The notes beneath the pieces are model-generated. The model worked only from the letters and a program-made list of their open reading frames with translations. It searched no databases and was not told the DNA's origin. A program made the translations under genes and the position numbers. Of a stretch of 42,295 nucleotides of DNA, positions 3,303 through 39,801 are shown piece by piece (position 1 is the first letter of the stretch; each line of letters opens with the position of its first letter). This DNA is from Candidatus Kappaea frigidicola. Lineage in GTDB: Bacteria; Omnitrophota; Gorgyraeia; JAGLLT01. The stretch lies in contig JAVCCI010000027.1 in NCBI GenBank assembly GCA_030765555.1, positions 1 through 42,295 on the forward strand. Direction: 5' to 3'.

Positions 3303-3611
3303 TTCTACTTCGCCAAGCAACTTTCGTCCTTGGCTTCGTAGGAATGCGAAAATGTAAGCCCGAGTGCATGGCAAATGGCTAAGGGCATATAAAAAACAAT
3401 AACCAAGACAAAACAGGATTAATCCCGCCAGAGGCGGACAGGGATTAAGACGCTCATTATTGACAAATTGTTGGTGAGCTCTAAGGATTAAGTAAAAAGC
3501 AAAAAAACATAGAAAAAAACAAAAAGATAATTATTCGCTTGTGACTTATGACTGGTGTCTTGTGACTTGTGTTTTGTAACTTGTGACTTAAATATTAGAA
3601 TGAGCGAAGGT
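3303..3611 (+). repeat. Heptamer-arm intergenic element, copy A, with tRNA-trailer hairpin
   Basis: GGATTAAGACGCTCA...GTGAGCTCTAAGGATTAAG module, A-rich core, seven CTTGTGA-type units at 3538-3586, GAATGAGCGAA end. Confidence 0.85.
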
Positions 3612-3612
3612 G

Positions 3613-3689
3613 GGGCGCATGGCGCAGTTGGTTAGCGTGCTTGCATGACATGCAAGAGGTCATAGGTTCGAATCCTATTGTGCCCACCA
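3613..3689 (+). tRNA. tRNA-Val (GAC)
   Basis: GGGCGCA/TGTGCCC acceptor stem, CTTGC-atGACat-GCAAG anticodon arm, GGTTCGAATCC, CCA. Confidence 0.97.
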
Positions 3690-3940
3690 TTCTACTTCGC
3701 CAAGCAACTTTCGTCCTTGGCTTCGTAGGAATGCGGAAATGTAAGAGCGGGTGCATGGCAAATAGCTAATAGCTAATAGCGAAGGGCTAAGGGCAAATAG
3801 CGTAGAGCGGATAAAAAAACAATAACCAAGACAAAACAGGATTAAGAATTAAGGATTAAGTTAGAAGCAGGATTTGAGTACAGAATTAAGTAAAAAAACT
3901 TAATTCTTAGAGCGAATAAAATGAGCGTCTTAATCCTAAT
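3690..3940 (+). repeat. Heptamer-arm intergenic element, copy B (empty cassette)
   Basis: Eight GCTAATA-type units at 3758-3813, GGATTAA units, right arm 3899-3934 matches 7025-7060 at 35/36. Confidence 0.85.
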
Positions 3941-3954
3941 CGAGGAAATACGTT

Positions 3955-36856: not shown

Positions 36857-38023
36857 GTGCTTAAAAAGGATCCACATTTTTTCACATCAGAATCAGTTAC
36901 GGAAGGACATCCAGATAAGGTAGCTGATCAGATATCAGACGGAGTTCTTGATGCCATTTTTACAGAAGACCCGGATGGTAGAGTTGCCTGTGAAACCTTG
37001 GTAACTACTGGAATAGCTTTTGTGGCTGGTGAAATAACAACAAATTGCTATGTAGATGTTCCTACTGTAGTAAGGCAAACTTTAAAGGAAATAGGTTATA
37101 CCGAACCAGAGTATGGATATGATTACAAGACCATTGGTGTTATTACTGCTATTCAAGCACAGTCAAAAGATATAGCTATGGGAGTTGATACTGGTGGTGC
37201 TGGTGATCAGGGTATGATGTTTGGCTATGCTACAAATGAGACCAAAGAATTGATGCCAATGCCTATTTTGCTTGCCCACAAGCTAACTAGGGAGTTAAGC
37301 AGAGTTAGAAAAGAAAAAAAGGTAAATTATCTTAGGCCTGATGGTAAGTCTCAGGTTACTATAGAATATGATAATGCGAAACCTAAAAGAGTTGAGGCTG
37401 TTGTTTTGAGTGCTCACCATTCTCCAAAAGCAGATATAGAAATGATTAGGAAAGATCTTAAAAAAATAGTAATTGATAAGATAATTCCTGAAAACTTAAT
37501 AGATGCCAAGACAAAAATATATATTAATCCTACTGGTAGATTTGCAGTTGGAGGCCCTGTGGCCGACACTGGTTTAACTGGTAGAAAGATTATTGTTGAT
37601 ACTTATGGTGGTGTTGGAAGCCATGGTGGAGGCGCGTTTTCAGGTAAAGACCCAACGAAGGTTGATAGGTCGGCTTCATACTATGCCAGATATATAGCAA
37701 AGAATGTAGTAGCTGCTAAGTTGGCTGATAGGTGTGAAATCCAATTAGCTTATGCTATTGGTGTAGCTGAGCCAGTTTCTGTTATGATTAATACTTTTGG
37801 TACAGGCAAAATATCTGATGTTACTATAGGCAAGCTTGTACGTGAAAATTTTAATATGACACCAAGAGGCATTATCGAAGAATTACATCTAAGAAGACCC
37901 ATCTATAAGAAGACGGCAGCCTATGGACATTTCGGAAGAGAATGTGAAGACGGCTTTAATTGGGAAATAACTGATAAAGCAGATATTCTAAAAAAAAGTG
38001 CTAAACAATCATCAAAAGAATAG
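36857..38023 (+). CDS. metK: S-adenosylmethionine synthetase
   Basis: [35 protein letters not shown]. Confidence 0.98.
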
Positions 38024-38199
38024 GTTTAAGGATTAAGACGCTCACCAGTAATAAATTGATAACGAGCTTTAAGGATTAAGTTACAAGTAAAAGTTATACC
38101 CTTTTACCCTTTCGGGCACAAGCAAGACACAAGTCACAAACAAAAAGCAAAAGAACAAAAAAGTAAAAAAATAGAGTGAGAGAACGCGAATATTTTGAT
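38024..38199 (+). repeat. Heptamer-arm intergenic element, copy E (no T-rich right arm)
   Basis: GGATTAAGACGCTCAC...GAGCTTTAAGGATTAAG, ACAAG units, A-rich core, AGAGTGAGAGAACGCGAATATTTTGA end. Confidence 0.85.
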
Positions 38200-38245
38200 A
38201 TAAGAAGTGAAACAATGGGCATACTATATAACGAAGGGAATAGAT

Positions 38246-39502
38246 ATGAAGTATGATATCAAAGATATTAAACTTGCTAAAAAGGGGAAATTAAGGATTG
38301 AGTGGGCAGAAGAGCGCATGCCTGTATTGAAGTTAATTAGAAATAGATTTAAGAAAGAAAAGCCTCTTAAAGGCACAACGATTGCTTGTTGTCTGCATGT
38401 TACTACAGAAACAGCTAATTTAGCCATTACTTTAAAAGAGGGTGGTGCTAATGTATATGTTTGTGCTTCTAATCCTTTAAGTACTCAGGATGATGTAACG
38501 GCATCTTTGGTTAAGGATTATAAAATACCAACTTTTGCCATAACGGGAGAGGATAATAAGACATATTATTCACACATTAATGCTGTTTTAGATGTGAAAC
38601 CAAATATTACTATGGATGATGGTGCAGACCTTGTATCAACCATTCATAAAAAAAGACAGAATTTAGTTAAACATATTTTAGCTGGCACAGAAGAGACCAC
38701 AACAGGTGTTATTAGATTAAGAAGTTTGCAAGACACAGGTCTTTTAATGTTTCCTGTATTTGCTATTAATGATGCCCAAACAAAGCATTTTTTTGATAAT
38801 CGCTATGGAACTGGACAATCAACCATTGATGGCATTTTAAGAGCAACTAATGTTCTTTTATCAGGAACAAAATTTGTTGTTGGTGGATATGGTTGGTGTG
38901 GTAGGGGTGTTGCTATGCGAGCCGAAGGTATGGGCGCTAATGTTATTGTCTGTGAAGTAGACCCTCTAAAGGCTCTTGAAGCCTTAATGGACGGATATGA
39001 TGTTATGCCGATGGAGAAAGCAGCTCAAGTTGGAGATATTTTTCTCTCAACTACTGGAGATATGCATGTAATTGATGTGAAGCATTTTAAGAAAATGAAA
39101 GATGGTGCTATTGTTGCTAACTCAGGGCATTTTGATGTTGAAATTAATATACCTGGCTTGAAGAAAATAAGTAAAGCAAAAAGACGCATTAAAGAGTTTG
39201 TAGATGAATATACTCTTAGAAGTGGCAAGAGGATAAATATACTCGGAGAAGGTAGATTAATAAATCTAGCTGCAGCTGAAGGTCATCCGGCTAGTGTTAT
39301 GGATATGAGTTTTGCTAATCAGGCTCTAACTTCTGAGTTTATTAAAAAGAATTATAAAAAACTCAATAAGGAAGTTTATCGAGTACCAGTTAGAATCGAT
39401 GAAAATGTAGCCAAATTGAAGTTAAAAGCTATAGGTATTAAAATAGATACTCTTACTAAAGAACAAAGAGAATATTTGGCTTCATGGCACATAGGAACAT
39501 AA
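38246..39502 (+). CDS. ahcY: Adenosylhomocysteinase
   Basis: [48 protein letters not shown] 38246 preferred. Confidence 0.98.
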
Positions 39503-39801
39503 AAAACAGGATTAAGGATTAAGGCGCTCACCATCGACAAGCTGACGGTGAGCTCTAAGGATTAAGTTAAAAACAAGAAATAAGATACAAGTTACAAGAA
39601 ACAAGATATACCCTAACGGGCACAGGCAAACAATTTCCAATAATCAATAATCAATCATCAAACAGTTTCTCTTGTTTGATTTTAACTTGGTTATTCGAAT
39701 TTGGTCATTGGTTATTATTTGGTTATTGTTTCTTGTCCCTTGGTTATTTTTTTATCCGCTAAACGCTAAAAAAATAGATTGAGCGAATGCGAACGTCTTA
39801 A
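39503..39801 (+). repeat. Heptamer-arm intergenic element, copy F (long imperfect hairpin, minimal loop)
   Basis: GGATTAA module, ACAAGAT and CAATAAT units, central ATCAAACA/TGTTTGAT, TTGGTYA units, GAGCGAATGCGAACGTCTTAA end. Confidence 0.88.

Follow-up and report, generated by a model that had tools for sequence, protein, structure and literature searches.

Six spacers of Candidatus Kappaea frigidicola as probable decayed copies of a PF05635 gene cassette with inverted heptamer-repeat arms

The window, by which we mean the whole stretch of 42,295 nts analysed here, contains six spacers assembled from common modules. The preliminary description delimited these spacers correctly, and sequence comparison finds their sharing of modules to be far above chance. 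It also described the essential neighbouring genes as undisrupted and the window as free of transposases, and we agree: tRNA-Leu, tRNA-Val, thrS, rplT, pheS, metK, ahcY and pfkA are all intact, as are a conserved 102-aa ORF (orf102, before pheS) and two heptosyltransferases beside the spacers, and there is no transposase in the window. A LAGLIDADG-like ORF is found at 2466-3140. The features of the six spacers are the following.

3303..3612, + strand: spacer 1, tRNA-Leu to tRNA-Val (repeat-family alignment, folding)
3303-3391, + strand: spacer 1, tRNA-trailer repeat
3412-3492, + strand: spacer 1, left unit with GGATTAA, a small CCGCC/GGCGG hairpin and GACGCTCA..GAGCT
3493-3534, + strand: spacer 1, A-rich core
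3535-3590, + strand: spacer 1, right arm of T-rich heptamers
about 3596-3612, + strand: spacer 1, degenerate closing unit
3690..3954, + strand: spacer 2, tRNA-Val to thrS (repeat families, folding)
3690-3778, + strand: spacer 2, second copy of the trailer repeat
3765-3812, + strand: spacer 2, TAGC-type heptamers
3829-3940, + strand: spacer 2, minimal gene-less module A without closing unit
6794..7092, + strand: spacer 3, rplT to orf102/pheS, deletion derivative of the full cassette (alignment to the C2 cassette)
6899..7036, + strand: spacer 3, PF05635 gene remnant, a 45-codon in-frame mini-ORF (profile search, alignment)
7019..7090, + strand: spacer 3, module A right arm, composed of right unit 1 (CTTAATCCTTAGAGCGAATAAAATGAGCGTCTTAAT) and the closing unit (7065-7088)
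20812..21126, + strand: spacer 4, between the two heptosyltransferase genes (repeat families, fold z -3.5)
20823-20851, + strand: spacer 4, GGATTAAG array, followed by TAGC heptamers
20915-20981, + strand: spacer 4, module B left arm (AATAACC type), followed by an A-rich core
about 21030-21095, + strand: spacer 4, T-rich right arm
21101-21124, + strand: spacer 4, closing unit
38024..38199, + strand: spacer 5, metK to ahcY (repeat families, fold z -0.1)
38030-38080, + strand: spacer 5, left unit with a degenerate inner hairpin, followed by ACAAGNN heptamers and an A-rich core
38173-38196, + strand: spacer 5, closing unit with 3 mismatches
39503..39801, + strand: spacer 6, ahcY to pfkA, the downstream gene being PFK by profile (repeat families, fold z -3.0)
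39509-39566, + strand: spacer 6, left unit, followed by ACAAGNN heptamers
39687-39736: spacer 6, module B, reversed relative to spacer 4, holding TTGGTCA (39701)
39776-39799, + strand: spacer 6, closing unit

The repeat GGATTAAG occurs 20 times in the window where 2.2 occurrences are expected, a count that none of 100 shuffles reaches, and 18 of the 20 are inside the six spacers. The GGATTAAGRCGCTCA...GAGCT unit is present in the four copies described earlier, starting at 3442, 6807, 38030 and 39516. The closing motif, allowing at most 3 mismatches, appears at 7065, 21101, 38173 and 39776, always on the + strand, with 0 expected in the window. It had been assigned to all six spacers and is found in four; in spacer 1 (3303-3611) it is reduced to a 65% remnant adjoining tRNA-Val, and spacer 2 (3690-3940) ends instead in a sister unit, AGAGCGAATAAAATGAGCGTCTTAATCC. 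Two related claims, that the right arms are complementary to the left ones and that the element folds as a hairpin, are supported for five spacers but not for 38024-38199, which has no such complementarity (fold z -0.1) and, lacking a right arm, represents a truncated copy. In spacer 2, module A consists of a left GGATTAAG arm, an inner hairpin GAATTAAG/CTTAATTC and a right unit ending in ..TGAGCGTCTTAATCC, and is 96.1% identical over 102 nts to a copy on contig C13. In spacer 3, the rplT stop codon (6804-6806) is now inside the GGATTAA array. The modules fall into at least two families, module A and a second one, module B, which is a hairpin of the AATAACC type.

An intact cassette is found on another contig of the same genome (G000, a 916-kb assembly and 89% complete MAG, with contigs named C2, C13 and so on), at G000:C2:~125-650. 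A GGATTAAG/GACGCTCA left arm is followed by the gene of a 117-aa PF05635 four-helix-bundle protein and by a right arm as in the window, and the left end GGATTAAGACGCTCA.. is complementary to the right end ..TGAGCGTCTTAATYC. In profile searches the protein scores 146.8-147.4 bits with PF05635, 134.6 bits with TIGR02436, 43.9 bits with PF22296 bAvd, and 49.5 bits with the Avd model NF033474, under its 80-bit cut-off; it also matches PDB 2gsc (E 3.9e-19). PF05635 is the sole gene found between matching ends. Spacer 3 (6794-7092) aligns end to end with this cassette, with nearly identical flanks and one in-frame gap of 216 nts. Its mini-ORF retains the first 7 and the last 38 residues of the cassette protein and scores 19.2 and 22.4 bits with PF05635 (cut-off 33.8) at profile positions 74-106. 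A gene-less form of ~130 nts is present at no fewer than six loci (C13, C40, C67, C11, C60:3833 and C81), and also in the ahcY-pfkA spacer of a relative, G001. One small genome holds a graded series of intact cassette, in-frame deletion and 130-nt relic, and the window copies derive from the intact cassette. The earlier proposal of non-autonomous or decayed copies of an element that carries a four-helix-bundle gene is largely borne out: the C2 cassette has the same arms, spacer 3 is derived from it, and the association with the gene is direct, as the PF05635 gene is inside those arms.

The non-repetitive part of module A includes three conserved modules, a 41-nt left unit, the right unit and the closing unit, and a CGTC/GACG tag marks the outer ends of the small palindromes (GACG-CTCACC.. 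and ..GAGCGTC) in 15/15 left units. Plain microsatellite-like slippage of heptamers in AT-rich spacers, with no element identity, would agree with the unit and copy number of the arrays, which vary between loci and genomes, and an excerpt of PMC4679880 states that, among the long simple repeats of prokaryotes, those with heptanucleotide units are the most common. We find this account scarcely credible, and for module A contradicted, given the conserved modules, the 94-98% identity of the ~130-nt copies at unlinked loci, and the copy that holds a gene; the inner arrays may still have grown by slippage.

We consider it probable (about 75%) that the six spacers harbour copies of a selfish cassette specific to this lineage, module A, and that these copies are non-autonomous and in part decayed. 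Intact, the cassette consists of one PF05635 (S23p/Avd-like) gene bracketed by inverted arms: on the left, GGATTAAG repeats and a GACG-tagged small palindrome, and on the right, one or two units ending in GAGCGTCTTAAT. It occupies short spacers between cistrons or at tRNA genes, and its start is mostly no more than about 12 nts from the upstream stop codon. Its sense orientation to the host genes suggests that it is read through within the operon transcript. The host would tolerate it in two ways, the arms pairing into a long hairpin with the cargo looped out, and the TAA of the heptamer repeats placing stops in all three frames. Internal deletions remove the gene, leaving the 45-codon remnant and the ~130-nt gene-less form. 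Heptamer arrays, module B among them, would be gained or exchanged, probably by slippage together with recombination or templated repair between arms, and copies would come and go spacer by spacer. The four-helix-bundle protein would presumably serve the element.

The family has further copies elsewhere: the 916-kb assembly contains 25 related regions, spread over 17 contigs, and three relatives have 7-10 copies each. Of 101 genomes sampled across the class, 5 contain the 72-nt right arm, with matches at 83-100% identity in G000 (9), G001 (10), G002 (9) and G004 (7), plus one weak match; among the bacterial families sampled, it is confined to this one. All copies are placed between protein or tRNA genes, in an assembly from which the 23S rRNA gene is absent. 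Several related regions adjoin contig ends; in practice, these elements break short-read assemblies, and contigs terminate in them. The uniform polarity relative to transcription that the preliminary description had noted is right for module A, which is sense to the flanking ORFs at 19/19 loci in G000, but not for module B, which is found in both orientations. In G001, G002 and G004, 22 of 24 module A loci are sense to transcription, and the two antisense loci are both in G004.

This strict polarity is what one would expect of cis-acting RNA elements that serve the host, in the manner of REP/BIME, ERIC, BOX or Correia, with hairpins that stabilise or insulate cistrons and the PF05635 gene as an occasional passenger. 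The location within housekeeping operons, right after stop codons, also agrees with such a role, and so does the conservation of the non-coding 72-mer: copies of the right arm at 7019..7090 are 89-98% identical in G001, G002 and G004, across genera that share 58% identity in the MiaA protein. We nevertheless regard a host-serving role as unlikely, since the same spacers are empty in the closest relatives, the module content is reshuffled between genomes, and truncated copies such as spacer 5 do without an arm. The structural signals also argue against it. In minimum-free-energy folds of the C2 cassette and of spacers 2, 3, 4 and 6, the left and right arms do pair with each other, and hairpins form on either strand, the minimal gene-less form of spacer 2 having a fold z of -3.4 in sense and -3.9 in antisense. 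G.U pairs in the arms show no excess on the sense strand (65 vs 72), and covariation in the small left-unit hairpin is not significant, as 338 of 500 shuffles pair at least as well; selection on RNA structure is therefore not supported. Neither promoter-like sites (19 vs 17.8 expected) nor terminator-like sites (1 vs 3.6 expected) are enriched, and the intact cassette has no recognisable promoter. The host-serving reading partly overlaps with that of a selfish cassette, because a selfish origin is compatible with later co-option.

A search of G000, the 89%-complete MAG, gives no match to RVT_1, DDE_Tnp_1, rve or TnpB, and we find no candidate for a mobilising enzyme tied to the arms. There is one intact Y1_Tnp gene of 225 aa (G000:C70:4162-4839, 58.7 bits) and a pseudogene on C30. 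REPIN-like single-stranded DNA hairpins moved by this Y1 (RAYT/IS200-like) tyrosine transposase would be favoured by the presence of the gene, by the hairpins possible on both strands, and by the CGTC/GACG tags, which recall the CGTC-tagged REPs for which, according to PMC3733652, no transposase is known. On either side of the C70 gene stands a different 16-nt inverted repeat, which includes GTAG, has 3 matches in the genome and bears no relation to the module A and module B arms. The palindromes of these modules are missing from the flanks of the gene, and we do not count module A as a REP/REPIN family with its RAYT. Sense polarity persists where the GC3 skew of the gene block is negative (C1, C8, C13), a setting for which a lagging-strand-template insertion bias predicts otherwise, and the cross-phylum association that we measure (see below) is with PF05635. 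Together these make mobilisation by Y1 very unlikely. An RNA-mediated route is more improbable still. In such a scheme, which resembles that of diversity-generating retroelements, an Avd-like protein would act with a reverse transcriptase to turn the hairpin transcript back into DNA; an RNA intermediate fits the sense polarity, and the cassette protein does match PF22296 bAvd and, below cut-off, NF033474. It is a homolog of the four-helix-bundle Avd of those retroelements (PMC10053308, excerpt), but its NF033474 score and the missing RVT_1 speak against an accessory Avd, and we noticed no pair of template and variable repeats.

Orthologous spacers in the relatives are either filled or empty rather than invariant. 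The rplT-orf102 spacer is filled in G000 only and measures 8-31 nts in four relatives; at metK-ahcY, G000 and G002 have a filled spacer, and that of G001, G003, G004 and G005 is empty. Overall, empty orthologous sites in the closest relatives have 8-40 nts. The ahcY-pfkA and SPOR-miaA spacers hold different modules in each genome. Since all five genomes read have an occupied SPOR-miaA spacer, with content differing each time, some sites may be ancient and subject to turnover in place, not to new insertion. Comparing filled and empty sites at rplT-orf102 and metK-ahcY defines no target-site duplication or exact boundary, as the junctions are blurred by the repeat arrays and by changes at the stop codon and the ribosome-binding site. 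The contigs of four metagenome runs contain no empty alleles, and the joints seen there are other genomic copies. The cassette genes of G000 and G004, which belong to two genera, occupy different loci and are 90.9% identical in nucleotides, compared with 73.1% for ahcY and 63.5% for miaA in the same pair of genomes. Their differences are distributed 5/5/22 over the codon positions, with 20 synonymous and 11 non-synonymous codons. As part of the selfish-cassette reading, this excess similarity suggests that the cassette moved between genera recently. For the ~130-nt form, homogenisation of occupied sites through gene conversion could also give the impression of transposition.

Several known systems resemble module A in part. 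Among them are the 23S rRNA intervening sequences with an S23p/PF05635 ORF. As described for Leptospira and Coxiella in PMC4990558, which cites Ralph and McClelland 1993, these also combine one small PF05635 gene, complementary termini and a long stem with sporadic distribution and reductive decay of the ORF, and they have long been suspected to be selfish or mobile, their ORF possibly serving in mobility. Unlike them, module A lies in mRNA intercistronic or tRNA spacers and not in helix 9, 25 or 45, its arms are 7-nt repeats, and it has multi-copy gene-less derivatives. The rRNA sequences are excised by RNase III, whereas a search for RNase III domains detects none in G000-G005 and finds them in 6 of 31 sampled genomes of the class, which makes the classical processing route unlikely here. 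MITEs and modular intergenic repeats (Correia/NEMIS, ERIC and BOX; cf. the abstract of PMC3184786) are likewise short, multi-copy and intergenic, with terminal inverted repeats, likely co-transcription, modular numbers of sub-units and presence or absence by strain. Module A differs from these in a parent with a four-helix-bundle protein only and no recognisable transposase, and in its almost absolute sense polarity; no target-site duplication could be made out at its blurred junctions. The CGTC-tagged REPs (PMC3733652, excerpt) share small tagged palindromes, often as inverted dimers downstream of coding regions, and the lack of a dedicated transposase; the stems and loops of module A do not fit their 8-9-bp stem, 4-5-nt loop and CCA tail, and its units are embedded in GGATTAAG arrays and flank a gene. 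Intergenic tandem repeats of 7-8 nts also characterise the paired octa-/heptanucleotide 'global regulator sites' of Geobacter metallireducens, which form opposite-strand pairs at variable distance, for instance between proB and proA, and one consensus of which, MTYCTGA, resembles CAGAAT-type arms around PF05635 genes (PMC2700814, excerpt). Cyanobacterial STRRs and the TAACTGA heptamers of Beggiatoaceae are tandem intergenic repeats as well (PMC4679880, excerpt). The excerpts of both papers do not link these repeats to a PF05635 gene or a hairpin cassette, and we offer such a link as a hypothesis.

Similar arms accompany PF05635 genes in many phyla. At 55 of 73 PF05635 loci, both 150-nt flanks have in common at least five inverted 7-mers, compared with 7 of 67 displaced controls. 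A period of 7 fits best in 49/75 upstream and 45/75 downstream flanks (10/144 in controls), and the upstream neighbour is co-oriented with the PF05635 gene at 66 of 74 loci. A PF05635 gene within a heptamer hairpin is thus a cross-phylum rule. The classical STRR heptamers of cyanobacteria are CCCCAGT, TTGGTCA and CAACAGT. The preliminary description had pointed to TTGGTCA at 39701; it is there, as the single occurrence in the window, within a TTGGTTA-type array. The connection to STRRs stands insofar as cyanobacterial PF05635 genes do have heptamer arms (5 of 6 plasmid loci), but the arms of the six loci contain none of the three classical heptamers, which leaves an analogy only. Some PF05635 genes separate cas6 from cas4 or cmr2 from cmr3, and their presence among cas genes has been reported (PMC3936711).

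A tentative generalisation, which we hold to be possible but rather doubtful, is that PF05635 genes define a class of selfish 'gene-in-a-hairpin' cassettes which is widespread but has gone unrecognised until now. Their inverted 7-nt-periodic arms, purine-rich arm first on either strand, would colonise intercistronic spacers, cas operons, plasmids and 23S rRNA, the last as the classical intervening sequences. The pentameric protein would act on its own arms in a new, transposase-free mode of mobility or maintenance, and orphan heptamer arrays would be footprints, among them STRR-like repeats of cyanobacteria, the paired sites of Geobacter and gene-less families as in the window. If so, the 'CRISPR association' of PF05635 would be a by-product of cassette insertion sites. 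The locus bears on two questions: what the proteins of the very common PF05635 'four helix bundle' family do, and how the rRNA intervening sequences discovered in the early 1990s arose. The cross-phylum rule makes both testable, through arm binding, arm processing and cassette movement, and it offers a simple account of intergenic heptamer arrays and of PF05635 genes among cas genes.

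The heptamer cassette is real, and its modules recur from spacer to spacer. All long ORFs of the window that were accepted as genes lie on the + strand, and the six spacers fall between the following genes.

Spacers of the window and the genes on either side
3303-3611: spacer 1, between tRNA-Leu and tRNA-Val
3690-3940: spacer 2, between tRNA-Val and thrS
6800-7090: spacer 3, between rplT and a conserved 102-aa ORF preceding pheS
20812-21126: spacer 4, between two heptosyltransferase genes
38024-38199: spacer 5, between metK and ahcY
39503-39801: spacer 6, between ahcY and pfkA

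That these spacers share their building blocks, as the preliminary description had stated, is confirmed by counts over the window: GGATTAAG occurs 20 times for 2.2 expected, and the closing motif, a right-hand end piece of about 24 nt, has four matches with at most three mismatches for 0 expected. A repeat search of the window returns a common left unit in four copies, an array of GGATTAAG in five, the closing unit in five (one of them weak) and a right unit in two. The closing motif had been ascribed to every spacer and is found in four of the six; right-hand reverse-complement arms had likewise been ascribed to all, and spacer 38024-38199 lacks one. Promoter-like and terminator-like sites are not enriched in the spacers (scan of 3100-8800).

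The intact form of the element is found elsewhere in the assembly (916 kb in 91 contigs, the window being contig C60; 89% complete, 35% G+C). Across the whole assembly, PF05635 is matched by one full gene, at 238-555 of contig C2 (146.8 bits), and one fragment, at 6911-7012 of the window. The C2 gene encodes a 117-aa protein that also matches TIGR02436 and bAvd and aligns with PDB 2gsc at E 3.9e-19; its closest named relative, at locus L013 of Candidatus Omnitrophota bacterium, is 91% identical in amino acids, and PADLOC reports nothing for the protein. On the 5’ side of the gene are GGATTAAG repeats and a GACGCT..GAGCT unit, and on the 3’ side CTTAATCC, then a right unit ending TGAGCGTCTTAAT, then a closing-type unit. 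This supports the inference of the preliminary description that an intact form carries a four-helix-bundle gene. We call the frame of inverted heptamer arms around this gene module A. When window positions 6794-7092 are aligned to the C2 cassette, the flanks are almost identical and the two differ by a single in-frame gap of 216 columns, a deletion that leaves a 45-codon ORF in the window. A gene-less form of about 130 nt, 94-98% identical between copies, is present on contigs C13, C40, C67, C11 and C81 and at 3833-3934 of the window, and also in the ahcY-pfkA spacer of a relative’s genome, G001. The window therefore holds decay stages of one element, as had been proposed for its spacers. A second module, module B, consists of an AATAACC/ACAAGNN heptamer hairpin that stands alone or, often, lies inside module A; it has one orientation on C16, at C67:6360, at C1:15585 and in spacer 4, and the opposite one in spacer 6, on C81 and at C1:6400. 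Further arrays, of TAGC type, are also present.

Some features of the window lie beside the cassette. Rfam matches at gathering thresholds are limited to 6S RNA and three tRNAs; the 6S RNA gene (RF00013, 79.2 bits) is at 10826-10981 (+), between ORFs 8703-10772 and 10990-12384. The tRNA-Leu and tRNA-Val trailers, 3303-3391 and 3690-3778, are copies of each other over about 88 nt (87% identical over 114 nt in one comparison, 94% over 80 nt in another); this repeat has no further copy elsewhere in the assembly and includes GAATGCGAA, a sequence that recalls the closing unit. At 2466-3140 (+), a 224-aa ORF is matched by the LAGLIDADG_3 domain (42.5 bits) and, in PADLOC, by a homing endonuclease; it is free-standing, with no obvious intron or intein around it, and at its 3’ end it runs into the first part of tRNA-Cys (3119). 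The rplT-pheS interval includes, at 7143-7451 (+), the lysine- and glutamate-rich 102-aa ORF, without a match in Pfam, NCBIfam or PADLOC and kept at the same position in the relatives’ genomes G001, G003, G004 and G005. In the spacer after pheS, 8461-8702, an unrelated sequence is duplicated in tandem with a period of 84 nt (8459-8518 and 8543-8602, 90% identical). Since a contig of sequencing run X24 joins 8462 to 8715 via 13 other letters, some variant or relative may lack this spacer.

Further copies elsewhere in the genome, which had been anticipated, are plentiful: BLAST with the spacers as queries finds at least 25 regions on 17 contigs of the assembly, a lower bound because several regions are at contig ends. 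The sequencing runs listed as carriers of this sequence comprise 24 of DNA and none of RNA. Contigs of four sequencing runs break at the elements, and every traceable joint leads to another genomic copy. The uniform polarity relative to transcription seen in the window extends to the genome, where 19 of 19 module-A loci are sense to the flanking ORFs; in G001, G002 and G004 the count is 22 of 24, the exceptions being loci L118 and L121. Such a polarity could follow either transcription or replication. Plain GC skew is dominated by the coding strand, and we used GC3 skew by gene block, an indirect proxy for replication direction. GC3 skew marks the replication strand in bacteria generally, and this lineage may differ. 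Most gene blocks have a skew of +0.18 to +0.32, and the sense loci include blocks with negative skew (C1 -0.17, C13 -0.12, C8 -0.06), so that polarity tracks transcription, not replication, provided that the skew has its usual meaning here. The range of the element is narrow: of 101 sampled genomes of the class, five have the 72-nt right arm (the present one, G001, G002, G004 and one weak match). The exact closing motif is absent from viral contigs and has six matches in metagenome contigs, five of them in this organism or its relatives, where they are likewise sense to the adjacent genes, and one in an unrelated GC-rich context.

Orthologous spacers vary between relatives, also as foreseen. 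The interval between rplT and the 102-aa ORF is filled only in the present genome, where the rplT reading frame now terminates within the GGATTAA array; G001 and G003 have 31 nt at this place, and G004 and G005 about 8 nt. The metK-ahcY interval is filled here and in G002, with the closing unit in common and the inner arrays different, and is empty in G001, G003, G004 and G005. The ahcY-pfkA and SPOR-miaA intervals are occupied in most genomes, with different content in each. The cassette gene is 90.9% identical in nucleotides between the present genome and G004, with 5, 5 and 22 differences at the three codon positions, the third dominating, and 20 synonymous and 11 non-synonymous codons; ahcY and miaA are 73.1% and 63.5% identical between the same genomes, and the two cassettes occupy different loci. 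The third-position excess, the higher identity of the cassette gene than of the host genes, and the different loci together point to a protein-coding cassette under purifying selection that was recently transferred.

The proposed long hairpin is supported for five of the six spacers. In minimum-free-energy folds, the left arm pairs with the right in spacers 2, 3, 4 and 6 as well as in the C2 cassette (z from -1.7 to -3.5), and spacer 1 shows long-range pairing of its halves (z -1.9); spacer 5 has no arm pairing (z -0.1). The selected structure could be RNA or DNA, and neither the G.U count nor the covariation test supports RNA. The two strands of the minimal gene-less form fold equally well (z -3.4 and -3.9), the arms have no sense-strand G.U excess (65 G.U vs 72 A.C), and the 41-nt left-unit hairpin has 87.4% paired cells, a level that 338 of 500 shuffles also reach, with one compensatory pair.

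The layout of the arms is not peculiar to this lineage. We sampled 80 PF05635 loci from many phyla, of which 73 were usable in a flank test that asks for at least five inverted 7-mers common to the upstream and downstream flanks of 150 nt each. RNA duplex energy of 250-nt flanks was too crude as an arm measure, giving the known positive L013 a z of only -0.9, and inverted 7-mer sharing was therefore adopted. It is found at 55 of 73 loci, vs 14 of 73 for direct sharing and 7 of 67 for windows displaced by 500 nt at the equal threshold. When periods of 3-12 are compared, 7 comes out best for 49 of the 75 upstream flanks and 45 of the 75 downstream ones, vs 10 of 144 controls. Protein identity and arm k-mers have a Spearman correlation of 0.15, over a high 6-mer background (mean 12-14 common). 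At 66 of 74 loci the upstream neighbour is co-oriented; the median gap is 67.5 nt. Purine content is higher in the upstream than in the downstream arm at 61 of 75 loci; as the arms form an inverted repeat, the purine-rich arm comes first on either strand. At PF05635 loci this arm is over-represented for SD-like sub-words: the left arm has 109 where 70.6 are expected, and the right arm, read as its reverse complement, has 99 where 47.5 are, in a test chosen after seeing examples and with counts inflated by the repeats. CAGAAT- and AGGAGT-type units recur across phyla in the flanks of PF05635 genes, the CAGAAT type at loci labelled Bacteroidetes, Planctomycetota, Elusimicrobia and cyanobacteria. 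Plasmids include 40 records with a PF05635 relative, mostly from Nostoc, Calothrix and Anabaena, and five of the six plasmid loci examined have heptamer inverted arms.

Several agents could move the cassette. RVT_1, DDE_Tnp_1, rve and TnpB have no match in the 89% complete assembly. An intact 225-aa Y1 (RAYT/IS200-like) transposase gene is at 4162-4839 (-) of contig C70, flanked by a 16-nt inverted repeat with GTAG, and a second copy, at 2241-2576 of contig C30, has two stop codons. The C70 enzyme is an unlikely mover, its own inverted repeat being unrelated to the arms. Excision by RNase III, in the style of intervening sequences, is unlikely in the host lineage because no RNase III domains were found in the present genome or in G001-G005. 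Among 31 genomes sampled from the class, six have RNase III (PF00636): three of the 25 with PF05635 vs three of the six without, in small numbers of related genomes. Candidate movers are the four-helix-bundle protein, through some activity of its own, an enzyme missing from the MAG, and arm-to-arm recombination or gene conversion.

The preliminary description’s reading of the spacers is supported. Published work describes a hairpin-plus-S23p layout with a proposed mobile origin for 23S rRNA intervening sequences (PMC4990558), paired tandem 7-8-nt repeats on opposite strands as putative regulator sites in Geobacter metallireducens (PMC2700814), and heptamer repeats of Beggiatoaceae, cyanobacteria and Bacteroidetes that remain unexplained (PMC4679880). 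Our literature search, incomplete in coverage, turned up no paper connecting PF05635 genes located outside rRNA with inverted heptamer arrays or with a MITE-like family, and none that joins the rRNA-type hairpin, paired-repeat and heptamer-array observations. We file the element as one of the intervening-sequence kind. Unlike the 23S rRNA intervening sequences, the cassette is located outside rRNA, has arms built of heptamers, and has given rise to gene-less descendants that form a MITE-like family. Two armed four-helix-bundle genes on plasmids lie within cas loci, one between cas6 and cas4 (L144, Anabaena sp. 90) and one between cmr2 and cmr3 (L145, Picosynechococcus), in agreement with the 18 such genes reported in cas loci (PMC3936711). 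The CRISPR association reported for the PF05635 family may simply reflect where such cassettes insert.
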